This document shows, one piece after another, positions 24,128-44,205 of a stretch of DNA of 64,000 nt. This DNA comes from an uncultured Gammaproteobacteria bacterium. GTDB taxonomy: Bacteria > Pseudomonadota > Gammaproteobacteria > Xanthomonadales > Xanthomonadaceae. Under the pieces are notes generated by a model that ran no database searches, was not told the DNA's origin, and saw only the letters and a program-made list of their open reading frames with translations. The first letter of the stretch is position 1; every line of letters starts with the position of its first letter. A program made the translations under genes and the position numbers. The stretch lies in assembly GCA_963710825.1 (NCBI GenBank), contig CAVQBQ010000005.1, forward strand, positions 769,504 through 833,503, written 5' to 3'.

Positions 24128-24133
24128 CCGGGC

Positions 24134-27569: not shown

Positions 27570-27959
27570 TTACTTGGCCTTGGCGGCCTTGGTCGCCTTT
27601 TCGACGCCGGCCTTGGCCTGCGCGGTGGCGGCTTCGAACTGGCCCTTGGCGACTTGGCTGATGGCCTCGTTGGTCTTCATGGTCTGGCCCAGGACTTCCT
27701 GGCTGGTGCTGATGCTGCGCTCGACGTTCTCACGCGCAACCTGGATACCCTTGGGCCACACGGCCTTGAGGCCGTCGGCGTCGCGCACGTTGGCCAGCTC
27801 GCCGAAGAAGGCGAAGGCGGCGGTGGCGTTCTGCTCGATGGCGGCCAGCTGCATGCCGAAGACTTCCTGGGCATTGGCAAGCGCCAGCTGGTTGACTTCA
27901 GCGGCGTTGTCGGCGAACTGACGGGTGGTGGCGGTGAACTGCTCGTTGATCTGGTTCAT
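27570..27959 (-). CDS. Phasin-family protein (PHA granule-associated)
   Basis: Start at the ATG at 27959 (MNQINEQFTATTRQFADNAAEVNQLALANAQEVFGMQLAAIEQN...). Alpha-helical, ending in an Ala/Lys-rich C-terminus. Confidence 0.75.
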   Translation of the reverse strand: MNQINEQFTATTRQFADNAAEVNQLALANAQEVFGMQLAAIEQNATAAFAFFGELANVRDADGLKAVWPKGIQVARENVERSISTSQEVLGQTMKTNEAISQVAKGQFEAATAQAKAGVEKATKAAKAK

Positions 27960-28181
27960 GGCGGTTTCCTCTGCGAGATCCGGCAGGGAGTGCCGGTTTG
28001 TGCGATGCAGCATAACCCGGTGTTTGTTGCGATGCAACATTTCTCGGTGGAAGGTTGGGGGCCGTTAAGAAACCCCATGCAAACAAAGACATACGCTTAT
28101 GCCCAAGCGATGCATGGTTGCAATTGACCGATATTGGTTGTGCCGGTGGGGATCGCGCCTGCCGGGCGCCCCTGCAATCGC

Positions 28182-28535
28182 TCAGCCGTTGTAGCGACAG
28201 CCCGAGGTGCAGGTCTCGTGGACCACGACCTGGCTCAACAGTGGCAGCCTAGGCAGTAAATGGTCCCAGATCCACATCGCCAGACGCTCGCTGGTGGGAT
28301 TGTCCAGCCCAGGCACGTCATTGAGGTAATGGTGGTCCAGCTGGTCGTACAGGGGCTGGAAAGCCGCCTTGATGTCCGCGAAGTCCATCACCCAGCCAGT
28401 ATCGGCACCGGGCTGGCCACTGACATGCAGCTCGATCCGGAACGAGTGCCCGTGCAGCCGTGCACACTTGTGCCCGGCCGGGACATTTGGCAGCCGGTGC
28501 GCGGCTTCCAGGGTGAAGGTCTTGAAGATGTCCAT
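28182..28535 (-). CDS. queD: 6-carboxy-5,6,7,8-tetrahydropterin synthase
   Basis: Start at the ATG at 28535. [32 protein letters not shown]...ETCTSGC is collinear with E. coli QueD, including the Zn-binding His and the CxxHGH motif. Confidence 0.9.
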
Positions 28536-28909
28536 GACGGTTTCCGGGCCATGCCGGCCATGGGTGGCAAGACAATCACGGCCGGTGAAGGGGTGGGCAC
28601 GGTGGTGTGCAGATCGTTTTCGGAGGGCATGTCCGCACCCGCCAGAGCAAATGCGAGCAATTGCCAGATGCCAGTGCCCGGAAATCATCTCTTAAGTCAT
28701 TGAATATTTTACTGAAATAAAGGGGCCGAAGGAAGGCTGCCCAGCTATCACTCGATCTGGCCACACCTTTGCTGTCATCCAGCTCCTGCGGACCATTTCC
28801 ACAAGGTGTTTGAGTGGTGTCGATTTTGCCGGCCCCAGGCCGGCTGGCATGCGTTCCAACGCCGGAGCAAACAGCGTTGCCATGGCTTGGTATCGTGGTG
28901 ATCTACCTG

Positions 28910-29617
28910 ATGAGCAGAGAGTTCCAGAAGCCATTGACGGCATTACAGGTAAGTGTGATCATTGATTACATGAAAGGCAAGCAAGCCAAGCCCAGACCGT
29001 CCACCCTGCACGTACGCAATTATCGCGAGCGCATGCGGCAGCAGGGCCTTGTGAAAAAGGACGTGTGGATCCGGCCTGAATATGCCGAAGAACTGGCCGC
29101 CATCGAGCGCGGCATGCGAGAGGTTGACCGCGATCCCGCACTGCCTTGCCTGCCCTCCGAGCCGAGCCAGGCCGGCTGGTCGATCTCGACGATCCACCAT
29201 GCGATCGCCCAGACCTCGGCTGTGCAACAAGGGCTGGTGACGCTCGATCTCATCGAGGGCGCCGAGCCCAGCCTGCATCTGCAGATGCATGCGTTTGGGG
29301 ATCTCTCGGTCTTCGTGGCGGTTGGCGGGGACCAGATCATCGTGGAGTCCTACCTGTGGCCGGTGGCCCAGGTCATGGAGCCCGCTGACTTCAACGCGCA
29401 TGTCCTGCGCACCCACAAACTCATTCCGCTGTCCACGATTGCGCTGCAGGAGGTGGGCGGGATCGAGAGCTACACGATGTTCGGTGCCTTGGACACGCGA
29501 TCCAGCCTACCCAGCCTGATGCTCGAAATCGAATCACTTGCCGACAACGTCATCAGTTTCACCGAGACGTACGCTTCCTACCTGCGTCCCTTGGAAGCAA
29601 CAGGGCCGTCCTGCTGA
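28910..29617 (+). CDS. YjfI-like DUF2170 protein with ~90-aa N-terminal extension (gene 1 of the stress cluster)
   Basis: The C-terminal half (…SVFVAVGGDQIIVESYLWPVAQVMEPADFNAHVLRTHKLIPLSTIALQEVGGIESYTMFGALDTRSSLPSLMLEIESLADNV…) resembles E. coli YjfI. The basic N-terminal part (KGKQAKPRPSTLHVRNYRERMRQQGLVKK...) has no clear assignment. An alternative start at 28814 is possible. Confidence 0.55.
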   Translation: MSREFQKPLTALQVSVIIDYMKGKQAKPRPSTLHVRNYRERMRQQGLVKKDVWIRPEYAEELAAIERGMREVDRDPALPCLPSEPSQAGWSISTIHHAIAQTSAVQQGLVTLDLIEGAEPSLHLQMHAFGDLSVFVAVGGDQIIVESYLWPVAQVMEPADFNAHVLRTHKLIPLSTIALQEVGGIESYTMFGALDTRSSLPSLMLEIESLADNVISFTETYASYLRPLEATGPSC

Positions 29618-30351
29618 TGGTGGACGCGCTGCCAATGCTTTTCAAAAGAATCCAGGACGGCGTTGGCGAGCTGGGTGAGTCGGTGCTGGGCAACCGCAGC
29701 GAACGCGCGCTGGACCAGGGTATCCGCGGTATCGACCTGGTCCTGCACCAAGCCCGATCGGATCTTGCGTCGGCCAAAGCCCGCCGGATTGCCAAGGAGG
29801 ATGCGATCAACGCAGGCAAGACGCGCATCCATGCCGCAGAACTGCAGATTCGCTCGCTTCTTGCAAAGCGCCGGGTCAAGCAGGCGCGCACACTCGCCGC
29901 CGAGGTCGTGGCGCTGGAAGCCGAGCAGCTCGCGCTCGGCCACGAAGCTCGGGCACTTGTCGACCAGGAAGGTGAGTTCGTGCATGCCATCGCCCAGCTT
30001 GAACACCAGCTACGTCGCATGAAGCACCAGCTGGGCACGTTGCGCGCCACCACCGGCATCCAGCGGGCGCAGGCCGCAGTGGCACATCTGCAGCCGGGCC
30101 CGGAGACCCACCCCGAGAGCGCGCAAGCTTCCGCGCAACGCCTGCGCGAACGCGCCGCAACAACCAAGCCTGCTGCCAGCAAGCCAGCTACCAGCAAGCC
30201 GTCTGTAAGGCAACCAAGGGGCAAGCGCAGACCAGCCGAGGTGCCGCAGACGGACCAGGCCATTGAAAACGTCCTGGAGCGCCTGTCCATGCATGCGAAG
30301 TCCACAAGCAAGACGGCCGTCAACAAGACAACCGCAAGGAAGACCAAATGA
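29617..30351 (+). CDS. PspA/IM30-family protein (YjfJ-like)
   Basis: 244 aa, all-helical coiled coil. MLFKRIQDGVGELGESVLGNRSERALDQGIRGIDLVLHQARSDLASAKARRIAKEDAINAGKTR... resembles PspA/Vipp1 helix alpha1-alpha4, with a Lys/Thr-rich C-terminus. Its start overlaps the previous stop; its stop overlaps the next start (ATGA). Confidence 0.7.
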   Translation: MVDALPMLFKRIQDGVGELGESVLGNRSERALDQGIRGIDLVLHQARSDLASAKARRIAKEDAINAGKTRIHAAELQIRSLLAKRRVKQARTLAAEVVALEAEQLALGHEARALVDQEGEFVHAIAQLEHQLRRMKHQLGTLRATTGIQRAQAAVAHLQPGPETHPESAQASAQRLRERAATTKPAASKPATSKPSVRQPRGKRRPAEVPQTDQAIENVLERLSMHAKSTSKTAVNKTTARKTK

Positions 30352-30983
30352 ACGATTTCCTGCAAACCGTGCTCACCTTTCCGACATTGCCTTACAGCAT
30401 CCTGCTGGCGTTCTGCGTGGTTTACTGGATGCTCGCAGCGACCGGACTGCTGGATGGCGACGCCATCGACGGCCTGCTGGGATCGGACGGCGATCCCGGT
30501 GATTCCACCGCGACGGCCGGCATCGTGGCCAGGATGGGGCTGGGTGGGGTACCACTCATGGTTGTGATCGCGGTCCTGTCTTTTTGCGCGTGGCTGGCCA
30601 CCTATTTCGTTCAGCTGCTGGTCCTGTCGCACCTGCCAGGCCCACTGCGCATGCTGGCGGGCGTGGTGACACTGGTCGCGGCCTTGATCCCCGGCGTGCT
30701 GGTGACATCTGCACTGCTGCGGCCCCTGAGCAAGCTCATCAACCGCCTGAGTCCCCCCATCGCACGGTCGATCCTGGGGCGCGCTGGCACCGTGATTTCG
30801 CCTTGCGTCGATGCCGATTCCGGCCGCGCTGAATTCGATGACGGCGGCGCCGGGCTGATCCTGCAGGTGCGTACCTTGCCCGGCAGCATCTTCCAACGTG
30901 GCGAGCGTGTCGTCCTGCTTTCGTACGACGAGCAGGCCAATACCCACGCCGTGATCTCCGAAACCGATTTCAACAACCGCTAG
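30348..30983 (+). CDS. YqiJ-like inner-membrane protein with C-terminal NfeD-type OB-fold (flotillin partner)
   Basis: 211 aa. TM helix, acidic DGDAIDGLLGSDGDPGD stretch, two further TM helices, and a C-terminal OB-fold segment LILQVRTLPGSIFQRGERVVLLSYDEQ. This matches the architecture of E. coli YqiJ (DUF1449/NfeD). Confidence 0.7.
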   Translation: MNDFLQTVLTFPTLPYSILLAFCVVYWMLAATGLLDGDAIDGLLGSDGDPGDSTATAGIVARMGLGGVPLMVVIAVLSFCAWLATYFVQLLVLSHLPGPLRMLAGVVTLVAALIPGVLVTSALLRPLSKLINRLSPPIARSILGRAGTVISPCVDADSGRAEFDDGGAGLILQVRTLPGSIFQRGERVVLLSYDEQANTHAVISETDFNNR

Positions 30984-31013: not shown

Positions 31014-32987
31014 ATGTCACTTCCCCTCATTCTTCCGTTCTTGATCGGGCTCGGTGTGCTGCTGGTACTGGCGCTGGGCGTGTTTGGACTGTTCAAGGCG
31101 TTCTACCGCAAGGTCGACCAGGGCACTGCCCTTATCGTCAACGACATGAGCACGCAGCCCAAGGTGCACTTCACCGGCGGGTTGATCATCCCGGTGCTGT
31201 ACAAGGCCGAAGAGATGCAGATCAGCCTGATCACGCTGCAGGTCGATCGCCGCGGCAAGGAAGGCCTGATCTGCCGCGACAATATGCGCGCTGATATCTC
31301 GGTCGCCTTCTACCTCCGCGTCAACGAGACGCCGGCCGACGTGTTGCGGGTGGCCAAAGCCGTAGGCGCTGCACGTGCTTCGAACAAGAACGCGGTCGAT
31401 GAGTTGTTCAACGCCAAGTTCTCCGAGGCACTGAAGACCGTGGGCAAGCGCTTTGAATTCATCGACCTGTTCGAGAAGCGCCAGGAGTTCCGCGACGCGA
31501 TCGTCGATGTGATCGGCAGGGACCTCAATGGCTACGTGCTGGAAGACGTGGCCATCGACTACCTGGAGCAGACCCGCAAGACCGAACTGGACCCCAGCAA
31601 CATCATGGATGCCGAGGGTATCCGCAAGATCACCGAGCTCACTGCTGCGCAAAACGTGCGTACCAACGAGCTGGAGCAGGACGAGCGGCTTTCGATCACC
31701 AAGAAAAACACCGAGACCCGTGAGCACATGCTGCAGATGGAGCGCCAGCAGGCCGAGGCCGAAGCCAAGCAGAAGCGCGAAGTCGCCACTGTCCAGGCGC
31801 GCGAGGAAGCCGAAACCGCCAAGGTGCAGGAAGAGCAGCGCCAGGTCTCCGAGCGCGCGCGCATCGAGACGCTGGAGCAGGTCCAGATCCGTGAGCAGGA
31901 GCAGCTGCGCCAGGTAGAAGTCGCCGAGCAGAACCGCCGCCGCGCCGTGGCCATAGAGTCCGAGCGCGTGACCCGAGCCGAGCAGCTCGAGCAGGTGACC
32001 ACCGACAAGGAAGTCCAGCTGCAGGGCGTCGAGCGCGACAAGGTCGTCGAGCAGGGCCGCATGGACGTCGCCAACGTCGTGCGCGAGCGCACCCAGATCG
32101 AACAGACGGTGGCCGTGGCCGAAGAGAAGATCAAGGAAACCCGCCAGGTGTCGGAAGCCGATCGTGCCAAGCAGGTGTCGATCCTCGCCGCCGAGGCGTC
32201 GGCGCAGGAAACCCTGGTCATGCAGGTCAAGGCAGCCGAAGCGGGCGAGCAGTCGGCCAAGCATCGCGCCATGGAGATGACCCTGATCGCCGAAGCCGAG
32301 TTGGTCGCCGCTGCAAAGCAGTCCGATGCCAAGAAGGCACTCGCTGTCGGCATCCGTGCCGAGCAGGCGGCACCTGGCCTGGCGCTGGCCGAGGTTCAGG
32401 AAGCCACTGCCATTGCGTCCGAAAAGACCGGCGTGGCCGAGGCGCGCGTGATCGAAGCCAAGGCGGGCGCGAACTACAAGCAGGGCAACAGCGAAGCGCG
32501 CGTGCTCGCCGAACGCTTGGAAGCCGAGGCTGGCGGCCAGGCCAAGATGGGCCAGGCCAAGGCCGATGCGACCCAGGCGATGGGCGAGGCAGAAGCCGAC
32601 GCCGTAGGTCGGCGCATGGGCGCCGAGGCCGAGGGCCTGACCGCCAAGTTCGCAGCCATGGGCAAGATGAGCCCGGAAGCGCGCCAGCACGAGGAGTTCC
32701 GCATGCAGCTGGAAACCACGTTGCGGCAACTGTTGGCATCGCTGGAAGCGGGCAAGGACATCTCGCGCGAGAATGCCTCGGTACTGGCCAATGCCCTCAA
32801 CGGCGCCAACATCGAGCTGATCGGCGGCGACGGTGGTGTGTTTGATGCGCTCACCAAGGGTGTCTCGATCGGCAAGGCGCTGGAGGGCATCACCGGCGAG
32901 AGCCCGGTCCTCAAGCAGATGCTGGGCCGACTGGCTGGCCTGCCGGCGCCGCAGGCCGACTCGAAGGCTTCGGCACCCGAAGCCTGA
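31014..32987 (+). CDS. Flotillin-family SPFH/band-7 protein (YqiK-like)
   Basis: 657 aa. N-terminal TM, SPFH domain (…ISLITLQVDRRGKEGLICRDNMRADISVAFYLRVNET…), then a very long Glu/Ala/Gln/Arg-rich flotillin coiled-coil. Confidence 0.85.
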   Translation: MSLPLILPFLIGLGVLLVLALGVFGLFKAFYRKVDQGTALIVNDMSTQPKVHFTGGLIIPVLYKAEEMQISLITLQVDRRGKEGLICRDNMRADISVAFYLRVNETPADVLRVAKAVGAARASNKNAVDELFNAKFSEALKTVGKRFEFIDLFEKRQEFRDAIVDVIGRDLNGYVLEDVAIDYLEQTRKTELDPSNIMDAEGIRKITELTAAQNVRTNELEQDERLSITKKNTETREHMLQMERQQAEAEAKQKREVATVQAREEAETAKVQEEQRQVSERARIETLEQVQIREQEQLRQVEVAEQNRRRAVAIESERVTRAEQLEQVTTDKEVQLQGVERDKVVEQGRMDVANVVRERTQIEQTVAVAEEKIKETRQVSEADRAKQVSILAAEASAQETLVMQVKAAEAGEQSAKHRAMEMTLIAEAELVAAAKQSDAKKALAVGIRAEQAAPGLALAEVQEATAIASEKTGVAEARVIEAKAGANYKQGNSEARVLAERLEAEAGGQAKMGQAKADATQAMGEAEADAVGRRMGAEAEGLTAKFAAMGKMSPEARQHEEFRMQLETTLRQLLASLEAGKDISRENASVLANALNGANIELIGGDGGVFDALTKGVSIGKALEGITGESPVLKQMLGRLAGLPAPQADSKASAPEA

Positions 32988-33062: not shown

Positions 33063-36000
33063 ATGACGGATTCCAACACCACGGACGCCAACGCATCACT
33101 CGACCAGGCCGTCGCCCAGGGCGGTGCCTACGAGGTACTGCGCCAGCGACTCTCCGAGCAGGGCCGGCGACTGCGCGAGGTCGCCGACACGCTCAACGCC
33201 AAGCGACTGCAGGAGTTCGGCGATTCCCGTATGGAAATCGTGGGCCGCCTGCGGGTGCGCAGCGAGCAGAATGCGCTGGGCCGCGACGTAGTGCAGGTCG
33301 GGAATCAATTGCTCTTCGGTTACAACGTGTTCCTTGGGCTCAAGACCAGCACCGTCGTGGCCGACGTCTTCAGCCTGTATCGCCTGGTGGAGACTACAGG
33401 CGGCTACGACGTCACTCCGGTCGACCTGGGTACGAGCTTCCTTGCTGATCCCGCGTTCCAGAGGGATTTCGAAGAGCTCTACGCGTATTCCAAAAACGCG
33501 CGTCTGCTCCAGCTGTTGGTCAAGGACGGCAAGCTGCTGGCGTCGTTCCAGGTGGGACTCAAGACCACCGATATCCGCGTGTTCCGCTGGCAGCTGGCCA
33601 GCAGCGGCGAGATCTCCTACATCGACACCCGAGGCGAGCGCGACGTGGTGCTGCCGGCGCCGTTCGACTTCCAGTGGACGCGCGCCGACAAGGACATGGA
33701 AGTCAGCGGGCGCTTCCCGCACCTGAATATCCTCGACACCCTGTTCGTCGAAACCACCGGCGGTGACTTGACGATCAAGGTCGAGAACAACACCGAGACC
33801 GGCGAAGGCGTCTACAGCGAGCCGGTCGAGGATCGGACCCAGTCACTCGACGACGCGCAGGTCGAATTCGCCAAGGTCGGCACGCTGGTCCTGCTCAAGG
33901 TCTTGCCCTACCGGGAAACCCGGTGGCGCGGCCTGATATTCAACACGTTGACCGGCAAGGTATCGCGGGTGGATGCCATCGTCCAGGCATGTGTCCAGCT
34001 GCCCGAAGACCACGGCATCATCTTTCCCGGTGGCTATTACCTGCAGAGCGGCGAGCACAAGGCTTTCGACGCCGCGGTCGCCGGGATGCATTACAGGCGC
34101 ACGATCCGCTCGCCCAATGGCGAAGACGTGCTGTATGTGTTCTACGAACCCGAGAGCGGGCTGATCGCCCTGTTGGTTTACAACATGGTGCAGCGCCGCT
34201 TGCAGCCGCCGGTGCTTGCGCATGGTTACGCGCGCCTGCCCGATGGCCGCATGGTCCTGTTCCTGGCCGAAAACGACGATCCGACCCGCGTGCACCAGAT
34301 GCAGGTCTGGCAGACACCATTCGCGAGCGACGAGTTTGCCGCGGGGCGCCCTCCCAGCAGCACGTTCATGGGCCGGGTTGGCAATGCCGAGCTGGTGCGC
34401 GCCATCTCCAACGTCTACGACCTGACCCGCGACATCGAGCGCGAGGAGGTCACCGCCCAGCGCTATGAGCTGCTCGCCCACGCTACCCGCAAGCTGTTCG
34501 ACGCGCACCACTGGATCGACGATGCACATACCGGGGGCCTGTCCACGCTGCTGCACGAGATCGCGGCCACCGGCGAGTCGGTGCTGGACGAATTCGAGAA
34601 GGTCGTCGCCATCCGCCAGCAGTCGCAGGTCGCCATGGACAAGGCCAAGGTCGCGCAGCGCGCCTTGCTGGGACGGCTGCAGCCCGAGGGCTGGAACCAG
34701 GCGCAGGAGTTCGTGGACGCGCTCAACGCGATCAGTGCCCAGCGCGGCCACCTGCTGACCATCCGCGAGTTGCGCTACATCGACACCCGCGCCATCGATG
34801 CGATGGTGGAGGCCTTGGGTCAAGCCCACGAGGATGTGGGTGCGGCCACCGGCCGTTTCCTGGCGACCGACCAGGCGCTGGCGCCCTTCGAGCAGCGCTT
34901 ATCGACGCTCGACGACGCGGCGCAAAAGGCCACCACAGCCGTGCAATTGGCCGAGCGATTGGCCGGCATGCAGGGCATGTCGGCGGACCTGGACATGCTC
35001 TCCGAGTTGATGGCCTCGCTGAAGGTCGATGACCCCACGCAACGCACGCAGGTCGTGGACACGCTGTCCAACCTTTACTCGCGCCTCAACCAGGCCAAGG
35101 CACGGGCCGATCTGCGCCGCAAATCCTTGGGATCGGCCGAAGCGGTCGCCCAGTTCGGGGCCCAGTTCACCTTGTTCGGACAGTCGCTGGCCAGCGCCCT
35201 GGGGATGGCGACCACGCCGGAAAAAGCGGACGAACACCTTTCGCGCCTGATGGTCCAGCTTGAGGAGATCGAGAGCCAGTTCGGAGAGCATGAAGAATTC
35301 CTCGGTGACATCCTGGGCAAGCGCGAGGAGTTGCTCGAAGCGTTCGAAAGCCACAAACAGGCCTTGCTCGACCAACGCCAACGCAAGGCGCAATCCGTCA
35401 TGGACGCGGCCAGCCGTATCCTGGATGGCCTGCCCCGGCGCACCGAACGATTCGCAAGCGCCGACGAGCTCAACGCCTTCTTTGCCGGCGACACGCTGAT
35501 CCAGAAGCTGCGCGAGCTGGCCGGGCGTTTGCGCGAGCTCAAGGACACCGTCAAGGCCGACGACGTCGAATCGCGGATCAAATCGGCCCGCGACCAGGCC
35601 GTCCGCGCCCTGCGTGATCGCAGCGACCTGTTCGAAGACGGCGGCAACGTCATCAAGCTGGGGCCGCGTCATCGGTTCAGCGTCAATACCCAACCGCTGG
35701 ACCTGACCCTGCTCCCGCGCGGCGACCACTTGGCCGTGCACTTGACCGGCACCGACTTCATGGAGGCCATCGACGATATCGAGCTCGCGGCGCTCAAGCC
35801 GTTCTGGTCGGTCACGCTGGAATCGGAGTCGCCGGACATCTCCCGTGCCGAATACCTGGCAGGTCAGATACTGGAAGCAGCCATGGCCGATCGTGACGGC
35901 CTGGACTTGCCTGGCTTGCACGGCCTGGCTGCGGACACGCAAGCGCTTGGCAAGGCCGTGCGCGACTTCGCGGCACCGCGCTACCGCGACGGATACGAGA

Positions 36001-38426
36001 AAGGGATCCATGACCACGATGCCACCCTGATCCTGCAGGCGCTACTTGCCGTGCAACGCGATGCCGGCACCCTGGTCCATCCACCCGCGGCGCGCGCGCT
36101 GGCCTTCGACTTCTGGGCCAACCTGGGCGACGACGCCGTCGAGTGGATTGTGCGGGTCCGGGCCGCGCGCGCCGTGGATGCTCTTAGCATGGGTGGCAAC
36201 GGCATTGCACAGTTGCAAGCGGGTCTGGCGACGGCAATCGACCAGTACGCTTTTACGGGCGATCGAATCTTTCCGGTCACCGACGCGCAACCGGCGGAAG
36301 CTGCCGCCTATCTCATAGAAAGCATCACCGGCACCGCCCCCGCATTCCAGGCCAGTGCCGGCGCGGACATCTTGGAGCGCGCCCTACGCGAGGCCCTGCG
36401 GTCCGGCGACGTCGGTAGCGTCTTCGAAGCTGCCTTGGGACATCTGCAAGCGCGCCCGGGTGCCCGCTGGTCATTGGTCCAGCAGGCATTGGAGTCGATC
36501 GCAGTCCGCCCGGATCTGGGCGAGTACGCACGCTATGTACCCGAAGCCACGGCGCTGTACCTGCATGGCAAGGAACTCGCACCCACGATCGGCCAGGCCC
36601 CCCTGTCGGCGACGGTCAGCGGCTTGCTGGGGCAGCATCCTCGTATCCAGGACGGCACCCTGACCGTGGCGATCGATGAGGCCATCGCGCGATACAAGCA
36701 TCACGCCACGCAGTTCGTCCCCGCCTACCAGCGCTACCTGGCCCTGCGATCCCAGGTGATCCAGCGCGAGCGCGAAGCAATGCGGCTGGAAGAATTCAAG
36801 GCGCGTCCGCTGACCTCGTTCGTGCGCAACAAGCTCATCAACGACGTCTACCTGCCGGTCATCGGCGACAACCTCGCCAAGCAGATGGGCACGGCGGGCG
36901 AGGGCAAGCGTAGCGACCTGATGGGGCTGCTGATGATGATTTCGCCGCCTGGTTACGGCAAGACCACGTTGATGGAATACGTCGCCCACCAGCTTGGCCT
37001 GGTCTTCATGAAGATCAACGGGCCGGCCCTCGGCCACGAGGTGCGTTCGCTGGATCCCGCTCAGGCACCCGATGCGACGTCGCGGCAGGAGCTGGAGAAG
37101 CTCAACCTGGCGCTGGAGATGGGCAGCAACGTGATGCTTTACATCGATGACATCCAGCACACACACCCGGAATTCCTGCAGAAGTTCATTTCCTTGTGCG
37201 ACGGCACCCGCCGCATCGAAGGTGTCTGGCATGGCAAGACGCGCACCTACGACATGCGCGGCAAGAAGTTCGCGGTGGTGATGGCCGGCAACCCGTACAC
37301 CGAATCGGGCGAGGTCTTCAAGATCCCGGACATGCTGGCCAACCGGGCCGACATCTACAACCTGGGCGACGTGCTCGGGGGCATGGAGGACTCCTTTGTC
37401 CTGAGTTACCTGGAGAACAGCCTGACGTCCAACCCGGTGTTGGCCCCGTTGGCGACGCGTGACATGTCCGACCTGTACCTGCTGGTTGACAAGGCGCGCG
37501 GCAAGGAGGTCTCCACCAATGCGCTCAAGCACGCCTACAGCGGCGCGGAGATCAACGAGATCGTAGGTGTGCTGCAACGCCTGATGGCGGTGCGCGACGT
37601 GGTGTACCGCGTCAACCAGCAATACATCGAGAGCGCGTCGCAGGCCGACAAATATCGCGTCGAGCCGCCGTTCAAGCTGCAGGGCAGCTACCGCAACATG
37701 AACAAGCTGGCGGAGAAGGTCTCGCCGGTGATGAATGACGCCGAATTGCAGCAACTCGTGTCCGATCACTACCTGGGCGAGTCGCAACTGTTGACCACCG
37801 GCGCCGAGGAAAACCTCCTGAAGCTCGCCGAGTTGCGAGGCAACATGACGGCGGAACAGCAGGCACGCTGGGACCGGATCCGCGCCGATTTCCTGCGCAA
37901 CAAGGCAATGGGCGCCGATGATGCAGATGTCGGGGGTCGAATGGTCGCGCAACTGGCCGACATCGCCGGCAACCTGGAGTCGTTGCGTCAGGAACCCATG
38001 GAGAAGACCGGCCCGGCGCCGTGGGACGAGGTGATCGGGCTGCTTGAGCGGCTCGGGCAGAGGGAAGTCCACGCAACGGCACGGCCATCCCCGGCAGCCC
38101 CACACACTTCAATCAAGCCGGAACTCGATGCCATGTTCGACGGGCTGCAGGCCCATCAAGCCCCGTTGCTTGAGATCCTGAGGGCCACGCTGACCCGGCA
38201 GGACATCCTCAACGACACCATGGTCGACGTGTTTGATCGATTGGCCCAGACCGCATCGTCCCCAGCTACCGAGGCTGACGATCAAGACGGCCACCGCCCT
38301 GTCGAGCACACCCTGCGCGTGCGAAGCGCCCGTGAAATCGCCTTCGAGCGCGAACTGGCCAACCTGCGATTCCGCCACGAAGGGCCTGCCCGCACGAGCA
38401 AGCCTGCAACGGATCCAGACGCTTGA
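33063..38426 (+). CDS. Giant (1787 aa) uncharacterised protein with an internal AAA+ ATPase core
   Basis: Uninterrupted ORF with normal codon bias. Walker A LMMISPPGYGKTTLMEYVAH (~aa 1290-1310), Walker B NVMLYIDDIQH (~aa 1355), sensor-1-like FAVVMAGNPYTESG and an Arg-finger region FKIPDMLANRADIYNLGD (MoxR/dynein-like AAA+). ~1270 aa of unassigned sequence lie N-terminal and ~330 aa C-terminal. Confidence 0.8.
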   Translation: MTDSNTTDANASLDQAVAQGGAYEVLRQRLSEQGRRLREVADTLNAKRLQEFGDSRMEIVGRLRVRSEQNALGRDVVQVGNQLLFGYNVFLGLKTSTVVADVFSLYRLVETTGGYDVTPVDLGTSFLADPAFQRDFEELYAYSKNARLLQLLVKDGKLLASFQVGLKTTDIRVFRWQLASSGEISYIDTRGERDVVLPAPFDFQWTRADKDMEVSGRFPHLNILDTLFVETTGGDLTIKVENNTETGEGVYSEPVEDRTQSLDDAQVEFAKVGTLVLLKVLPYRETRWRGLIFNTLTGKVSRVDAIVQACVQLPEDHGIIFPGGYYLQSGEHKAFDAAVAGMHYRRTIRSPNGEDVLYVFYEPESGLIALLVYNMVQRRLQPPVLAHGYARLPDGRMVLFLAENDDPTRVHQMQVWQTPFASDEFAAGRPPSSTFMGRVGNAELVRAISNVYDLTRDIEREEVTAQRYELLAHATRKLFDAHHWIDDAHTGGLSTLLHEIAATGESVLDEFEKVVAIRQQSQVAMDKAKVAQRALLGRLQPEGWNQAQEFVDALNAISAQRGHLLTIRELRYIDTRAIDAMVEALGQAHEDVGAATGRFLATDQALAPFEQRLSTLDDAAQKATTAVQLAERLAGMQGMSADLDMLSELMASLKVDDPTQRTQVVDTLSNLYSRLNQAKARADLRRKSLGSAEAVAQFGAQFTLFGQSLASALGMATTPEKADEHLSRLMVQLEEIESQFGEHEEFLGDILGKREELLEAFESHKQALLDQRQRKAQSVMDAASRILDGLPRRTERFASADELNAFFAGDTLIQKLRELAGRLRELKDTVKADDVESRIKSARDQAVRALRDRSDLFEDGGNVIKLGPRHRFSVNTQPLDLTLLPRGDHLAVHLTGTDFMEAIDDIELAALKPFWSVTLESESPDISRAEYLAGQILEAAMADRDGLDLPGLHGLAADTQALGKAVRDFAAPRYRDGYEKGIHDHDATLILQALLAVQRDAGTLVHPPAARALAFDFWANLGDDAVEWIVRVRAARAVDALSMGGNGIAQLQAGLATAIDQYAFTGDRIFPVTDAQPAEAAAYLIESITGTAPAFQASAGADILERALREALRSGDVGSVFEAALGHLQARPGARWSLVQQALESIAVRPDLGEYARYVPEATALYLHGKELAPTIGQAPLSATVSGLLGQHPRIQDGTLTVAIDEAIARYKHHATQFVPAYQRYLALRSQVIQREREAMRLEEFKARPLTSFVRNKLINDVYLPVIGDNLAKQMGTAGEGKRSDLMGLLMMISPPGYGKTTLMEYVAHQLGLVFMKINGPALGHEVRSLDPAQAPDATSRQELEKLNLALEMGSNVMLYIDDIQHTHPEFLQKFISLCDGTRRIEGVWHGKTRTYDMRGKKFAVVMAGNPYTESGEVFKIPDMLANRADIYNLGDVLGGMEDSFVLSYLENSLTSNPVLAPLATRDMSDLYLLVDKARGKEVSTNALKHAYSGAEINEIVGVLQRLMAVRDVVYRVNQQYIESASQADKYRVEPPFKLQGSYRNMNKLAEKVSPVMNDAELQQLVSDHYLGESQLLTTGAEENLLKLAELRGNMTAEQQARWDRIRADFLRNKAMGADDADVGGRMVAQLADIAGNLESLRQEPMEKTGPAPWDEVIGLLERLGQREVHATARPSPAAPHTSIKPELDAMFDGLQAHQAPLLEILRATLTRQDILNDTMVDVFDRLAQTASSPATEADDQDGHRPVEHTLRVRSAREIAFERELANLRFRHEGPARTSKPATDPDA

Positions 38427-39124
38427 CCGGGACGTTCGACATTGCCGAAGCAAGTCGATTCGGGGAAGCATCCGTCCGCCACGATTTGATGCGCGACGCG
38501 GCCAACATGGCCGATGCCTCCCCTGCAGCGCTCCTTCTGAAGAGCGTCCAGACGATCCACAAGGTGCTTCTCTCTGCGGATCCACGATCCCTCAAGCGCA
38601 GCATCGGCTGGTTCGGACGGCTGTTGGGTCGCGACATTGCCTTGCAGGCCGAGTCGGAGGCGCTGCGTAGCCATCTGCGTGTAGACATCCTTGAAGCGCA
38701 TCGTCTGCTTCATGACCTGCAACTCCATGACAAACGGCTGCAGCAGCTTCGCGACGATTTTGGCCAGGCCATCAAGCAACTGGACGCGGATGTTGCCGCG
38801 CTCAACAGCCAGGTCATGGACAGCACCGATGTGGGTCTGTCGACCGTCATTGCCCAACGAACGCAATTTCTTGCTTCGCTGGCCTACAGCTACCGGATGA
38901 CCGGTGCCCACCTGGATCTGACCGTCACCAACCACCGGGAGCTTGCCCGGCGCGTCGCCCTCATGCTGCCTCGGGTGGAGCTGTTGCTGGACCAGGACAG
39001 GTTGTTGCGTGCAGGCCATACCGAAAACACCGCAATCCAGTCAGCCGCGCAGTCGATGGATGGGCTGGTCGACCTCATTGACCCCCCGGGGGAGTTACCC
39101 TCGATCCAGACCACAAGGACCTAG
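38423..39124 (+). CDS. TelA-like coiled-coil protein, shorter paralogue (possible TTG start overlapping the giant gene's stop; alternative ATG at 38483)
   Basis: 233 aa helical protein whose pattern (...LRSHLRVDILEAHRLLHDLQLHDKRLQQLRDDFGQAIKQLDADVAALNSQ...) parallels the middle region of the next gene. Tightly coupled on both sides. Confidence 0.45.
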   Translation: MTGTFDIAEASRFGEASVRHDLMRDAANMADASPAALLLKSVQTIHKVLLSADPRSLKRSIGWFGRLLGRDIALQAESEALRSHLRVDILEAHRLLHDLQLHDKRLQQLRDDFGQAIKQLDADVAALNSQVMDSTDVGLSTVIAQRTQFLASLAYSYRMTGAHLDLTVTNHRELARRVALMLPRVELLLDQDRLLRAGHTENTAIQSAAQSMDGLVDLIDPPGELPSIQTTRT

Positions 39125-39126
39125 TC

Positions 39127-40224
39127 ATGAACCAGCCCCCTTCCGAGCCTTCACAAGCCCTGCTCCCGCCCTCGCTCAACGCGCAGTCCCTCAAGGACCT
39201 GGGCCTGTCGTCGGAGGATGTCGAACCCATCCTTGAAACGGCCAAGGCACTGCAGGATCTAAGCCCGGGCAACCTGCACGGTTATGGGCGCCAGGCCGCT
39301 GGCCGGACCACCAGTTTCAGCACGCAATTGCTGGACAAGGTGCGCAACACCGACCTGGACGAGAGCGGCAACAAGCTCGGCGAGGTGGTCCGGATCGCAC
39401 GCAGCCTCAACCTGTCGGCGCTCAACGAGCGATCCAGGGTCCCGGTCATCGGTGCTCTGATCGACAAGCTCAAGACGACCAAAGGCGAGTTGGTACAGCG
39501 TTACAGCTCCACCAACAAACAGGTCGACGAGTTGATGCATGACGTTGGCCGCACCCAGGCCTTGCAACAGCAACGCGTGCGTGAGTACGACCAGATGCAC
39601 GCCATCGTGCTGGAGGAGCGCCACGACCTCGGCATCCATGTCGCCGCCGGCCGCATCCGCATCGCCGAGTTGCAGCAGGACATCGCCGGGTTGGAAGGCC
39701 GGGACGATCCGGAATCGCGTACGCAGCGTGCCGAGCTCGACACCGCTTTGCGGCTGATCGACAAGCGGGTGTCGGACCTGCAGGTCCTGCAACATGCCGC
39801 CACCCAGACGCTGCCGATGATCCGGCTGATCCAGGCCAATGCGATCCAGTTGATCGAGAAGTTCAGCGCCGTGCGCGACATCACCCTTCCGATGTGGCGC
39901 AATCAATTTGCGATCCAGCTGTCACTGGCCGACCAGCGCAACGCGGTGGACCTGGCCAACGCCATCGACGACGCCAGCAACGAGCTGATGCGCAAGAACG
40001 CCGAGTTGATCCACTCGACTGCCGTGGGCAGCGCCAAGGCCAACCAGCGATCGATCATCGACCTGGAAACCCTGCAAACGGTCAACGACACACTCATCAG
40101 CACGGTCGAGGAGGTGCGCCAGATCCATCGCGACGGCATGGCAGCACGTCAGCAGTTGAGTGTCGAGATCGCGACGATGCGCGACGATCTCGAAAAACGC
40201 CTGTCGTTGACCACGACCCCTTGA
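39127..40224 (+). CDS. TelA-like (toxic-anion-resistance family) protein
   Basis: 365 aa, all-helical. Size and coiled-coil layout fit the TelA/KlaB family. Adjacent to a TerB-like gene. Family assignment is by resemblance only. Confidence 0.45.
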   Translation: MNQPPSEPSQALLPPSLNAQSLKDLGLSSEDVEPILETAKALQDLSPGNLHGYGRQAAGRTTSFSTQLLDKVRNTDLDESGNKLGEVVRIARSLNLSALNERSRVPVIGALIDKLKTTKGELVQRYSSTNKQVDELMHDVGRTQALQQQRVREYDQMHAIVLEERHDLGIHVAAGRIRIAELQQDIAGLEGRDDPESRTQRAELDTALRLIDKRVSDLQVLQHAATQTLPMIRLIQANAIQLIEKFSAVRDITLPMWRNQFAIQLSLADQRNAVDLANAIDDASNELMRKNAELIHSTAVGSAKANQRSIIDLETLQTVNDTLISTVEEVRQIHRDGMAARQQLSVEIATMRDDLEKRLSLTTTP

Positions 40225-42740: not shown

Positions 42741-44205
42741 TTACATCCGCATCGCGTGCGGCGTGGGTGCCTGCAATACCTGCGCCTGTTGCGCGGGGAG
42801 GGGTTGCTCTGCGGCCTGCTGGTCACGAAGTTGCAGCGCGCGCCCAAGCGACTGGCTTTCGGATTGCCATGCCTGCCCAGCTTGTGAGCCGAGGAAGCCT
42901 TGCGAGACGGCGTGCGACTCACGTTTCCAGTTGGCGTCGCTACCGTCCTGCGAAGCTTTGAAAAGCCGGTCGATCATGCCGTCCGTGTCACTACCGGGTT
43001 TTGGTTGGAATGGCGTGTTCATCGACTGGGTGACATCAAGTCCAGGCCGTCTCTCCTGAACGGGTAGCGGCCCAATCGGGACGCCGCGGCGCTCCAGCGT
43101 CGCCTCCAAAGCGGGATCGATGGGGTCTTTGTGCCAGCAGTCCTGACTGGGATCACGACGGCACAATGCGCGTGTCACCAGGATCGTGTCGTGGTTGCGC
43201 ACGCCGTCGCGGAAGCCGAACGTGGTGAAGAGGCCATGCATGTGCTGATCCGAGCGGTGCACCACGCTCAGTTCCGGATCCGCTGGGATCGCGCGTTTGA
43301 CGAGGAAGGGCTGGTCGCTCAGGGCATTGAGGTAATCGATGCCCAGGTTATGGCTGCGGATGCCCAGTCCGTTGAGCAGATAGGAATCCCCGATGTCGCT
43401 GTGGGAGCCGCCCACCATGATGTTGAGGAATCTGCCCTGTTCGCTGAAGCCGAATACGAGGACATCACTGGCGGGAAACAGGTCGCGACGTTCGTCTTCG
43501 GCGGTGATCTGCAATGCCGATACAACCGACGATGGCAACCGGCGATCTTCCTCGGCGACGCCAGTATCGACAGGATCGAACAGCACCACCGCTTGCACCG
43601 TTTTTCCTGGTGGGACCAGGGCCGGTTTGGCGTACTCGATATGCGTAATCAGATTGTCTTTGTCGCGAGTGAACCTGGCGTCATGTCGGATCCTGGATGC
43701 CACGCTCGTCGATCATGCGAAGCAAGGAAGCGACTTCTTCGGAACCACGACTGAAGCCTACGCCAGCAATCCGGATCTGGGCCTGCGGGTCCTCTTTCAA
43801 CCATTCGTACGATTGCTTGCAGAACCCGTAGTACGCCGTTTCAACGCGTGCTTCAAACGTATAGCCGGTAAGCCCATCCAGAGTGCGTTTGATCGGGTTG
43901 GCCTGGGTGAAGGTGCCCTCGACGTAGCCGCCGCGGATGCGTTTGTTGCCTTGGTCTTCCAAAGCGCGGACTTGTGAGTAAATCTTTGCGACGACACTCC
44001 AGTTTTCTGGCGCGTCCTTGAACATGCTGTTACCCGTTCCGTCCAGTCCTGAAATATACAAGCGCTGGTGAGGGTCGTCGGCATGTATGAGGACCGGTGT
44101 TTGCAGCTTTTCTAGCGCGCTTTCAGCTTGTTGATAACTTTCCAAGTCATGCGGATCGGCACGATCAACATCGACGCCGTCCACGCCTGTCTTTTTCTTC
44201 CCCAT
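42741..44205 (-). pseudogene. DUF2235 alpha/beta-hydrolase (Tle1-like T6SS lipase effector family) split by a frameshift near 43681-43703
   Basis: ORF 43681-44205 carries the N-terminal motifs ISGLDGTGN and GVGFSRGS (GxSxG-like nucleophile elbow). ORF 42741-43703 in another frame continues the same domain with GGSHSDIGD (catalytic His/Asp motif). Together ~490 aa. Confidence 0.6.

Follow-up and report, generated by a model that had tools for sequence, protein, structure and literature searches.

A BacE-family AAA+ ATPase encoded with flotillin and NfeD-like proteins in a Lysobacteraceae operon: a candidate motor for an envelope-stress machine

RESULTS

The operon and its gene products

The window analyzed here is a stretch of 64,000 nucleotides of genomic DNA from an uncultured gammaproteobacterium (contig CAVQBQ010000005.1). 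It carries the following gene cluster, each gene given with the basis of its assignment.

28970..29617, + strand: bacA-like gene (DUF2170/CesT-Tir fold, YjfI family); Pfam and NCBIfam
29617..30351, + strand: PspA/IM30-like gene (bacB-like, yjfJ family); Pfam PspA_IM30
30348..30983, + strand: short NfeD/YqiJ-like gene (bacC-like); weak Pfam match and orthologs
31014..32987, + strand: flotillin/SPFH gene (bacD/PaFlo3-like), 657 aa; orthology
33063..38426, + strand: BacE-family AAA+ protein, 1787 aa (DUF3686 + DUF7902 + AAA_5); open reading frame, Pfam, and homologs
38423..39124, + strand: truncated TelA paralog, 233 aa; hhalign
39127..40224, + strand: TelA (toxic anion resistance family) gene, the final gene of the cluster; Pfam TelA, E = 3.3e-67

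The AAA+ gene belongs to a compact operon with the order bacA-like, pspA-like, nfeD/yqiJ-like, flotillin, AAA+, telA-like, and telA. Stops and starts overlap by 1 nt at the bacA-like/pspA-like junction and by 4 nt at both the pspA-like/nfeD-like and AAA+/telA-like junctions, while the remaining junctions are gaps of 30 nt (nfeD-like/flotillin), 75 nt (flotillin/AAA+), and, at another, 2 nt. The AAA+ reading frame runs without interruption for 1787 aa and matches its flanks in GC content, bearing out an earlier sequence-only reading that took it for real coding sequence. The nearest relatives of its product are in the Lysobacteraceae (65 to 78% identity), and the genes surrounding the operon in the window are housekeeping genes (AcrAB, QueD).

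The bacA-like frame opens at GTG 28814, with ATG 28970 as the probable start. Its product matches Pfam DUF2170 (E = 1.6e-44) and, over residues 62 to 258 of the open reading frame, the NCBIfam model NF050185, “biofilm formation regulator BacA” (E = 7.5e-71), with a score of 238 bits that lies under the 300-bit cutoff. The PspA gene that had been noticed upstream of the AAA+ gene is upheld by a PspA_IM30 match of 41.4 bits against a cutoff of 33.9 (E = 1.7e-10). The bacC-like product is a membrane protein with three transmembrane (TM) segments and a C-terminal soluble domain. It matches Pfam YqiJ_N weakly (E = 0.23), its Hymenobacter ortholog carries the annotation DUF1449, and PA14_16160 has been termed “short NfeD” (PMC13086221).

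The 657-aa neighbor has an N-terminal TM segment, then its SPFH domain, then an extended coiled coil rich in Glu and Ala. Pfam and PDB sequence searches with it gave no match, even with a 14-sequence profile, and its earlier designation as a flotillin stands on orthology: it is 44 to 70% identical to its orthologs, 3 of 14 of these match Band_7 (1.2e-7), and RefSeq labels the ortholog on pQBR103 “SPFH domain-containing protein.” In the flotillin and in the NfeD-like protein alike, positively charged residues directly past the TM segments put the soluble domain in the cytoplasm by the positive-inside rule. The start of the 233-aa TelA paralog lies within the end of the AAA+ gene; Pfam and NCBIfam searches with this protein gave no match, and its comparison with the TelA family by hhalign gave a probability of 98.7% (E = 2.3e-16).

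A sigma54 promoter has been proposed upstream of bacA in P. aeruginosa, and a candidate, TGGCCACACCTTTGCT, lies at 28758 to 28773, 5' of the bacA-like gene. We treat it as unsupported. In the window the pattern turns up 7 times where about 2 copies are expected, and 1 of 100 shuffles gave at least as many; of 68 related operons, 66 lack it on their 5' side, and a consensus-scored sigma54 scan returned no site at a threshold that also dropped the window's own. Scans for sigma70 promoters and terminators gave results at chance level.

Domain architecture of the AAA+ protein

The sequence-only reading recognized an AAA+ core in otherwise unassignable sequence. This was wrong for the remainder: Pfam places DUF3686 (PF12458) at residues 37 to 483, spanning profile positions 2 to 448 of 448 (E = 1e-189; 631 bits versus a cutoff of 25), and DUF7902 (PF25472) at residues 604 to 688 (34872 to 35126; E = 1.8e-24), while AAA_5 and AAA match residues 1290 to 1417. 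Two AlphaFold2 models of regions of the protein, A and B (pLDDT of 88 and 87.6), divide it as follows.

Residues 56-420, 33228..34322, + strand: beta-propeller of about 28 strands, probably seven blades, forming the DUF3686 core; model A and Foldseek
Residues 421-860, 34323..35642, + strand: long helices (up to 58 residues) of coiled-coil/helical-bundle character, including DUF7902; DSSP of model A
Residues 861-1240, 35643..36782, + strand: small beta subdomain, helical domain, second beta unit, and long helix; model B
Residues 1286-1440, 36918..37382, + strand: AAA+ alpha/beta domain; Pfam, model B, structure matches, and motifs
Residues 1441-1640, 37383..37982, + strand: lid and post-AAA helical domain; model B and invariant columns
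Residues 1641-1787, 37983..38423, + strand: nonconserved tail, modeled mostly at low confidence; model B and alignment

The N terminus is beta rich, as had been suspected, with strands from residue 58 to residue 417 in model A. Most of residues 56 to 420 have a pLDDT of at least 90, and Foldseek matches them to the propellers of Elp1, LRRK2 WD40, Ski8, the clathrin terminal domain, prolyl oligopeptidase, and YncE in the PDB. The N-terminal beta domain is modeled as a propeller, probably a seven-bladed one. The helical character claimed for residues 450 to 1250 agrees with the long helices at 423 to 856 but fails at two modeled beta subdomains (about 863 to 903 and 1175 to 1203). Residues 861 to 1240 are modeled at a pLDDT above 90, with the helical domain variable at 1011 to 1240; they are the least conserved structured part (21% identity in a diverse set), and PDB structure comparison gave them no match ranked above the AAA+ ones. 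The tail retains 5% identity with 64% gaps in the same set, and several of its segments have a pLDDT below 50.

PDB sequence searches with the single protein and with a profile built from 24 sequences over the AAA+ region returned solely Walker A-centered matches to RuvB, p97, NVL, and Rix7, and no solved relative of the non-AAA parts. The Foldseek matches of the N-terminal 900 residues also included chains of IFT-A, clathrin, and nucleoporins, which combine a propeller with helices, but their TM-scores were 0.08 to 0.14, and a protocoatomer-like, coat-type architecture was rejected on this basis. NCBIfam and PADLOC scans of the protein gave no meaningful match; a weak PADLOC match to LmuB is confined to the helical region 421 to 860 and is regarded as a coiled-coil artifact.

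The AAA+ core and its closest clades

The motifs of the core were found where they had been reported: Walker A, SPPGYGKTT, at residues 1294 to 1302 (36942 to 36968) with K1300; Walker B, MLYIDDIQH, at 1358 to 1366 (37134 to 37160) with D1362-D1363; VVMAGNP at 1405 to 1411 with sensor-1 N1410; and PDMLANRADIYNLGD at 1422 to 1436. The label “Arg-rich” given to the last overstates it, for it holds a single Arg, the invariant R1428, which is an Arg-finger candidate. A pre-sensor-1 beta-hairpin spans residues 1384 to 1397 in model B. A further invariant motif, EPPFKLQGSYRNMNK, lies at 1534 to 1548 in the lid/post-AAA domain; model B places its R1544 at a helix N terminus, which makes this residue a sensor-2 candidate. 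K1300, D1362/D1363, N1410, R1428, and the QGSYR motif do not vary across 70 relatives with 26 to 51% overall identity, and the alpha/beta domain of diverse representatives at about that overall identity is 73% identical to the query. Walker A, Walker B, sensor 1, an Arg-finger candidate, the alpha/beta fold, and a helical lid together mark the protein as a member of the AAA+ superfamily.

The nearest structural likeness of the module is to MoxR, dynein, and midasin. With the MoxR family (CbbQ, NorQ, and RavA) and the related dynein and midasin AAA modules, the target shares its Pfam AAA_5 match and its pre-sensor-1 beta-hairpin, and the G-S-x-R motif at the N terminus of its lid helix resembles sensor 2 of MoxR. 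The target differs from MoxR in being about six times longer and in having DD rather than DE in Walker B. The helix-2 insert of the MoxR/AAA_5 clade is not apparent in the secondary structure of model B, where helix 2 has no beta-hairpin and a conserved loop, NGPALGHEVRSLDP, lies between strand 2 and helix 2. A VWA/MIDAS partner is usual for MoxR-type AAA+ proteins; Pfam scans of the protein, of 26 family members, and of the operon neighbors detected no such domain. The position of pore loop 1 holds an invariant His (LGH) and no aromatic residue, so a threading mechanism is not implied.

Three other assignments were rejected. The classical AAA clade (p97/NVL/Vps4/FtsH) is contradicted by PDMLANRAD, which has one Arg where two are expected, and by the His at pore loop 1; profile matches to NVL, Rix7, and p97 cover only the Walker A segment (E of about 1e-4). 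A PspF-type sigma54 activator would carry GAFTGA, which is absent, and there is no Pfam match to Sigma54_activat or a helix-turn-helix domain. For a Vps4-like ESCRT-III disassemblase, an MIT domain went undetected and the features of the classical clade are lacking.

A widespread family linked to flotillin and NfeD

Judged by its sequence, the 1787-aa protein is a typical representative of the DUF3686-DUF7902-AAA+ family, which is large, widely distributed, and biochemically uncharacterized. Clustering at 50% identity gives at least 1319 representatives, and the family occurs in at least 589 species of Proteobacteria, Myxococcota, Actinobacteria, Bacteroidota, and Deinococcus. Pathogens are among its carriers, with members in P. 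aeruginosa, Stenotrophomonas, Providencia, and Proteus. Full-length collinear alignments of about 1600 to 1800 aa hold down to 28% identity, and all 26 diverse members scanned have DUF3686, DUF7902, and AAA. Homologs number more than 5779, and most of those with a name are labeled “DNA repair ATPase.” No homolog was found in 50,697 phage records, and homologs occur in 13 of 72,556 plasmid records.

Gene order was compared in 80 related loci, 71 of which include upstream DNA. In all 71, the NfeD, flotillin, and AAA+ genes are adjacent and on the same strand, which supports the earlier proposal of a functional tie to the upstream flotillin and PspA genes. These loci come from Gamma-, Beta-, and Zetaproteobacteria, Myxococcota, Actinobacteria, and a Clostridia metagenome-assembled genome; a Hymenobacter plasmid and pQBR103 keep the same order. 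An ortholog of the short NfeD/YqiJ-like protein is encoded directly 5' of the flotillin in 68/80 loci. The DUF2170(BacA)-PspA pair is present in 37/80, and in 34 of the 71 loci that include upstream DNA the NfeD-flotillin-AAA+ genes lack an adjacent PspA gene.

The 3' side is variable. The start of an approximately 185-aa rhomboid intramembrane protease gene overlaps the AAA+ stop in 13 loci (Pfam Rhomboid, E = 3e-18), and a PLD/HKD hydrolase gene follows in 15 (PLDc_2, E = 1e-31). A TelA gene lies 3' of the AAA+ gene in 15/80 loci. The truncated TelA paralog is shared by 14 related loci, each placed in the Lysobacteraceae by record title or operon type, and in 12 of these the clustered frame begins 3 nt before the AAA+ stop. 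The window holds a Lysobacteraceae-specific variant, with two TelA-family genes where other lineages have rhomboid and PLD genes. An SF1-helicase-like frame 3' of the PLD gene was dropped as a component of the system because it is present in only 2/80 loci, and a LexA-family regulator lies near the family gene in one plasmid locus.

Orthology to BacE of Pseudomonas aeruginosa

Sequence comparison further identifies the target as the Lysobacteraceae ortholog of P. aeruginosa BacE (PA3728/PA14_16190) of the bacABCDEF operon, an assignment made through other Pseudomonas loci, published primers, and annotation. In the loci examined, Pseudomonas orthologs share about 60% identity with the target across the C-terminal 830 residues, the primer sequences in print fall at the 3' ends of their flotillin and AAA+ genes, and PA14_16190 is likewise described as “ATPase involved in DNA repair.” The P. 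aeruginosa cluster shares the order DUF2170 (BacA), PspA-like (BacB), short NfeD (BacC), flotillin (BacD/PaFlo3), and large ATPase. It differs downstream: Pseudomonas loci have a rhomboid-family gene, presumably BacF, after the ATPase gene and usually then a PLD/HKD gene, whereas the window has the truncated TelA paralog and TelA.

The bacABCDEF operon was described as a “biofilm-associated cluster” (Mace 2008, PMC2587700; Wallart 2024, PMC10948618), and Wallart et al. 2024 (PMC10948618) named BacE, showed by reverse transcription-PCR that bacA-F form a single transcript, and found that BacB-F accumulate 6- to 13-fold in a bacA mutant. PA14_16200 (BacF) is cotranscribed with BacE, and PA3728-PA3732 are coinduced by infection with two virulent phages and also in another stress proteome. 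The operon has been implicated in biofilm formation and virulence; phenotypes are known from bacA and bacB mutants, and deletion of paFlo3 affects biofilm by just about 20%. Our literature search found no biochemical or genetic test (ATPase, oligomer, partner, or phenotype) of the target protein or an ortholog.

DISCUSSION

Because the AAA+ gene always follows the flotillin/NfeD pair, its product probably serves as the ATP-driven motor of a machine for envelope stress, and the strict linkage together with the strongly conserved ATPase core makes it the obvious candidate for that part. The reading that we favor, and to which we give roughly even weight, is that the target is an AAA+ ATPase of MoxR/dynein-like type, cytoplasmic and probably ring forming, that uses ATP to remodel a scaffold of flotillin and NfeD, with PspA where present. 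The propeller and helical arms would hold the protein to the flotillin-NfeD (SPFH) assembly on its cytoplasmic side; the motor sits in the C-terminal third, behind the propeller, about 440 residues of long helices, and the mixed domain. ATP hydrolysis by the ring could then drive assembly or disassembly of the scaffold or clear clients from it, where PspA is present its polymer may be a substrate as well, and the whole assembly would be part of an envelope or membrane-stress response. Gene linkage is evidence of functional coupling, not of physical contact or of the identity of a substrate. The failure of Pfam to detect a VWA/MIDAS domain, the His at pore loop 1, and the small biofilm effect of the paFlo3 deletion weigh against the favored reading. 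We infer the mechanochemical role, and with it the state of oligomerization, the protein that is contacted, and the direction in which remodeling runs, from the domain architecture, the intact and highly conserved ATPase motifs, the family size, and the NfeD-flotillin linkage described above, along with literature on cotranscription, coregulation with bac/psp-like genes in P. aeruginosa, and phage induction. More tentatively, the family as a whole may be the dedicated motor of a widespread bacterial flotillin (SPFH)-cage machine, with arms that grip flotillin-NfeD and a MoxR-like ring that remodels the cage or extracts clients upon membrane damage.

The same motor could instead be an engine for membrane protein quality control that hands flotillin-cage clients to a protease or lipid-modifying partner and leaves the scaffold as it is. 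HflK/C-FtsH and p97 with the rhomboid-family proteins derlin and RHBDL4 in ERAD are precedents, and the overlapping rhomboid genes of 13 loci, the PLD/HKD genes of 15, the rhomboid gene within the pQBR103 cluster, and the cotranscription of BacF with BacE all point this way. We nevertheless consider this unlikely: rhomboid and PLD genes are missing from the window, which has two TelA-family genes instead, and from most loci, NfeD and flotillin alone are invariant partners, and the protein has neither an aromatic pore loop nor a protease domain. Action on PspA rather than flotillin, as a Vps4-like disassemblase that recycles the PspA polymer during membrane repair, would fit the PspA and CesT-like partner genes in this operon and in 37/80 loci, the coregulation of the Bac proteins, and the ESCRT analogy in the passages of Ravi et al. 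2024 (PMC11237479) on these operons. Against it stand the 34/71 loci without adjacent PspA and the failure of Pfam to detect an MIT domain in the target and 26 members, and we rate it as distinctly unlikely. In species whose operon lacks PspA, a distant pspA may serve; this would weaken the argument from missing PspA genes without proving that PspA is the substrate.

Phage induction of PA3728-PA3732, the family copy on megaplasmid pQBR103, and the linked TelA/Ter-family genes in the window would also suit an anti-phage or abortive-infection module that senses or answers phage-induced membrane damage, and Ter-type genes have been associated with stress or conflict systems in other genomic studies. 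That reading is very improbable given the lack of a significant PADLOC defense-family match, the phage and plasmid counts above, and housekeeping surroundings with a GC content like that of the operon; the operon order is conserved across phyla, so the cluster reads as a core stress system. A role in DNA repair is disfavored more strongly still and is barely credible. What speaks for it is a name, since Pfam titles PF12458 “ATPase involved in DNA repair” and the annotations “DNA repair ATPase” and “DNA repair protein” derive from it, along with weak RuvB_N and RuvB matches over about 40 residues at Walker A only. The name appears to stem from the entry title, and our search found no experiment behind it and no paper mentioning DUF3686 or PF12458. 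No DNA-binding, nuclease, or helicase domain was found in 26/26 members, the invariant neighbors are membrane proteins, and no repair gene is conserved nearby, the helicase-like frame and the LexA-family regulator being confined to the few loci noted. The sequence-only reading would have yielded to a well-characterized family with a known role; the family found is covered by Pfam and named “DNA repair ATPase,” yet uncharacterized.

Neither the protein nor its operon is new, as the DUF3686 + DUF7902 + AAA family, BacE (PMC10948618), and, in passages of Ravi et al. 2024 (PMC11237479), the same operon type, described by comparative genomics, are on record. That work is comparative genomics alone, like ours, its operon composition and domain description agree with the target's, and its abbreviated, widespread flotillin-YqiJ(-AAA+) operons agree with our 71/71 loci. 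The target differs from that description in its order of short N-terminal helices, propeller, and long helices, and those passages do not mention TelA linkage. The window adds one more ortholog and the Lysobacteraceae TelA variant, and its practical value is modest.

The wider interest lies in what may power these assemblies. Much current work concerns the flotillins and PspA/ESCRT-III-like proteins of bacteria, but we know of no established energy source for their dynamics in most bacteria. HflK/C, an SPFH cage, surrounds the AAA+ protease FtsH, and ESCRT-III, whose superfamily includes PspA, is remodeled by Vps4. The first system couples an AAA+ motor genetically and physically to an SPFH-family scaffold and the second couples one to a PspA/ESCRT-III-superfamily polymer, whereas here both couplings are known from gene linkage alone; the target also differs from FtsH and Vps4 in having no protease domain, TM segment, or MIT domain. 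If the flotillin-cage reading of the family is true, the “DNA repair ATPase” label on thousands of genomes is simply wrong, and the motor would count as a bacterial equivalent of FtsH-HflK/C, Vps4-ESCRT-III, or p97-ERAD.

Results

The ORF at 33063-38426 (+) is uninterrupted and encodes 1787 residues, as a sequence-only reading had stated, and its GC content is like that of the flanking genes. It is embedded in a compact cluster on one strand.

Genes of the cluster
28970-29617 (+), bacA-like (DUF2170; NCBIfam BacA model 238 bits, under its 300-bit cut-off)
29617-30351 (+), PspA/IM30-like (Pfam)
30348-30983 (+), NfeD/YqiJ-like, three TM segments
31014-32987 (+), flotillin
33063-38426 (+), AAA+ gene
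38423-39124 (+), 233-aa gene
39127-40224 (+), TelA (Pfam)

Stops and starts overlap by 1 nt at the bacA-like/PspA-like junction and by 4 nt at the PspA-like/NfeD-like and AAA+/233-aa junctions; the remaining junctions are gaps of 2, 30, and 75 nt. In both flotillin and the NfeD-like protein, the TM segments are directly followed by positively charged residues. By the positive-inside rule, this supports a predicted cytoplasmic location for the soluble domains of both, in the same compartment as the soluble AAA+ protein.

The NCBIfam BacA model matches residues 62 to 258 of the ORF at 28814-29617, whose probable start is 28970. Residues 66 to 103 of this ORF, preceding DUF2170, weakly resemble MazE (E = 0.016) and the UrfF "plasmid repression protein" (E = 0.0025). 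This N-terminal stretch may be a small DNA-binding domain, as would be expected if BacA is a repressor of the operon, as has been proposed in print. The PspA-like protein has a basic, low-complexity tail rich in Lys, Thr, Ser, Ala, and Pro (…KPAASKPATSKPSVRQPRGKRRP…KSTSKTAVNKTTARKTK), the last part of which is outside the Pfam PspA_IM30 match, which stops at residue 223 of 244. A sigma54-like -24/-12 element (TGGCCACACCTTTGCT, 28758-28773) lies ~200 nt 5' of the bacA-like start, a position that echoes a proposed P. aeruginosa bacA site; we regard it as unsupported because the window contains seven copies of the pattern where ~2 are expected, and 66 of 68 related operons lack it in their upstream DNA. 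The operon is bordered upstream by two minus-strand genes that by sequence look like a phasin (27570-28040) and a QueD-like 6-carboxytetrahydropterin synthase (28182-28688), preceded by an HlyD/AcrB efflux pair (22805-27271, +; Pfam-checked). Elsewhere in the window, overlapping ORFs at 42741-43703 (-) and 43681-44205 (-), with a GC content of 0.57 to 0.59 versus ~0.64 elsewhere, may be one frameshifted gene.

The AAA+ motifs named in the sequence-only reading were all located in the protein, and Pfam AAA_5 and AAA cover residues 1290 to 1417. Its claim that everything outside this core is unassignable was refuted by Pfam matches to PF12458 (DUF3686; residues 37 to 483, the entire 448-position model, E = 1e-189), titled "ATPase involved in DNA repair," and PF25472 (DUF7902; residues 604 to 688). 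NCBIfam, PADLOC, and PDB sequence searches returned Walker-A-centred similarity and nothing more. Two AlphaFold2 models, each built on 71-sequence alignments, were confident (residues 1 to 900, pLDDT 88.0; residues 880 to 1787, pLDDT 87.6 and pTM 0.74).

Features of the AAA+ protein (residues; motifs from the sequence, other elements from the AlphaFold2 models)
6-52, two N-terminal helices
58-417, ~28 beta-strands
423-856, very long helices, ~440 residues
~863-903, small beta unit
1011-1240, least conserved structured region, in a helical domain
~1175-1203, second small beta unit, followed by a long helix
1286-1440, AAA+ alpha/beta domain
1294-1302, Walker A SPPGYGKTT
1358-1366, Walker B MLYIDDIQH
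1384-1397, beta-hairpin preceding sensor 1
1405-1411, VVMAGNP
1422-1436, PDMLANRADIYNLGD
To ~1640, lid and post-AAA helical domain
After ~1640, low-confidence, non-conserved C-terminal tail

The strands at 58 to 417 match WD40-type and other propellers in Foldseek, and we read them as a predicted seven-bladed propeller; in the models, this propeller and the long helices are of kinds typical of interaction and reach modules. The structural models also support the proposed MoxR/dynein/midasin-like assignment, with caveats: similarity to MoxR-like proteins exceeds that to classical AAA proteins by a small margin, the modeled AAA+ domain shows no evident helix-2 insert, the VWA partner of MoxR-type AAA+ proteins is lacking, and around Walker A the nearest sequence profile is NVL/Rix7/p97. 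Across representatives 26 to 51% identical overall, the ATPase core is 73% identical to the query, versus 42% for the propeller and 21% for the variable helical domain. The family alignment is invariant at K1300, D1362, D1363, N1410, and R1428 and across the QGSYR motif (1540-1544). The AAA+ site is thus intact and under strong constraint, which points to an active enzyme.

A word-indexed search returned more than 5,779 homologs; the closest among the matches listed are ~1,780-aa Lysobacteraceae/Xanthomonadaceae proteins with 65 to 78% identity, and where the source gives a name, most are labeled "DNA repair ATPase." Exhaustive HMMER searching with residues 1 to 1200 found 1,319 representatives of 50%-identity clusters, 436 of them with E values of 1e-30 or lower; proteins collinear over their full length extend down to 28% identity. 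The family occurs in at least 589 species (one genome scanned per species), and all 26 diverse members tested contain DUF3686, DUF7902, and AAA/AAA_5 and no other domain. Homologs were absent from the phage records searched and present in only 13 of 72,556 plasmid records, mostly megaplasmids or multi-megabase replicons.

ORFs from 80 neighborhoods of AAA+ homologs were searched with iterated profiles from the window's proteins. Linkage of the AAA+ gene to NfeD and flotillin was invariant, the three being adjacent on one strand in all 71 loci having upstream DNA. A BacA-PspA pair was found in 37 loci (33 upstream on the same strand, 4 divergent). By hhalign (probability 98.7%, E = 2e-16), the product of the 233-aa gene is a truncated TelA paralog. 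It occurs with TelA in 14 of 80 loci, all assigned to Lysobacteraceae from the record title or the operon type; one further locus (Veronia) has TelA without it. This pair occupies the position held in Pseudomonas, Enterobacterales, and other lineages by a rhomboid protease and a PLD/HKD hydrolase, and this replacement is the sole local novelty of the window locus. The rhomboid gene follows the AAA+ gene in 13 loci, usually overlapping its stop (the Pseudomonas-group genera Pseudomonas, Aquipseudomonas, Phytopseudomonas, and Entomomonas; Enterobacterales; Cellvibrio; one isolate of Oleiphilaceae; and a single actinobacterial record), and the PLD/HKD gene is downstream in 15. In two Pseudomonas loci, a ~905-aa SF1-helicase-like ORF (GPPGTGKS motif; L010 13860-16577, L012 13839-16583) begins at the PLD gene stop, downstream of the operon; the remaining 78 loci yielded no such ORF.

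Two plasmid copies annotated independently by RefSeq fit this operon picture: pQBR103 carries PspA, rhomboid, YjfK/L/M/C-like genes, a hypothetical gene, SPFH, and "DNA repair ATPase," and a Hymenobacter plasmid carries "chaperone Tir," PspA, DUF1449, a hypothetical gene, and "DNA repair ATPase." On pQBR103 (NC_009444.1 85395-104536), two PspA-associated operon types are joined in one string (PspA, rhomboid, DUF2491, DUF350, DUF1190, glutathionylspermidine-synthase-like [YjfK/L/M/C-type], NfeD-like, SPFH, AAA+), with an MvaT/MvaU gene on the opposite strand after the AAA+ gene.

Discussion

The same operon, sometimes with a PLD hydrolase, appears in Ravi et al. 2024 (PMC11237479), who also report abbreviated flotillin-YqiJ(-AAA+) versions as widespread. 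The counterpart cluster in P. aeruginosa is the bac operon: bacA-bacF (PA14_16140-16200) form a single transcript by RT-PCR, and BacB-F rise 6- to 13-fold in a bacA mutant (Wallart et al. 2024, PMC10948618), a study that leaves the nature of BacE (PA3728) undiscussed. In Pseudomonas orthologs, the junction primers from the literature fall at the 3' ends of flotillin and the AAA+ gene, and the flotillin/ATPase reverse primer encodes PKNNCI, consistent with TENNC(V/I), a family motif near residue 70. From this literature and the primer mapping, we take the AAA+ protein of the window to be the ortholog of BacE. Phage infection raises PA3728-PA3732 together, these proteins are also co-induced in another stress proteome, and PA3728 is listed as an "ATPase" recurrently mutated in cystic fibrosis isolates. 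No experiments on a BacE-family protein itself were found in the literature searched.

One rival reading, plausible in Pseudomonas, is a motor for client extraction or quality control that acts together with rhomboid and PLD, but the window locus lacks both genes. Counting against a PspA-specific, Vps4-like role, PspA is not adjacent in 34 of the 71 loci that have upstream DNA. Phage defense drew no support from PADLOC, and the genes around the AAA+ gene form a conserved core operon. A role in DNA repair, as annotated, has the database name as its sole support.

The observation in the sequence-only reading is real and its interpretation broadly sensible. The family is already known, computationally described and experimentally uncharacterized; it deserves experiments, although the window reveals no new kind of system and its interest is moderate. 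We propose that the AAA+ protein would form a ring, that its propeller and helical arms may dock it on the cytoplasmic flotillin-NfeD assembly, and that ATP could be used to remodel this scaffold, plus PspA if present, under envelope stress, for which HflK/C-FtsH and Vps4-ESCRT-III are precedents.
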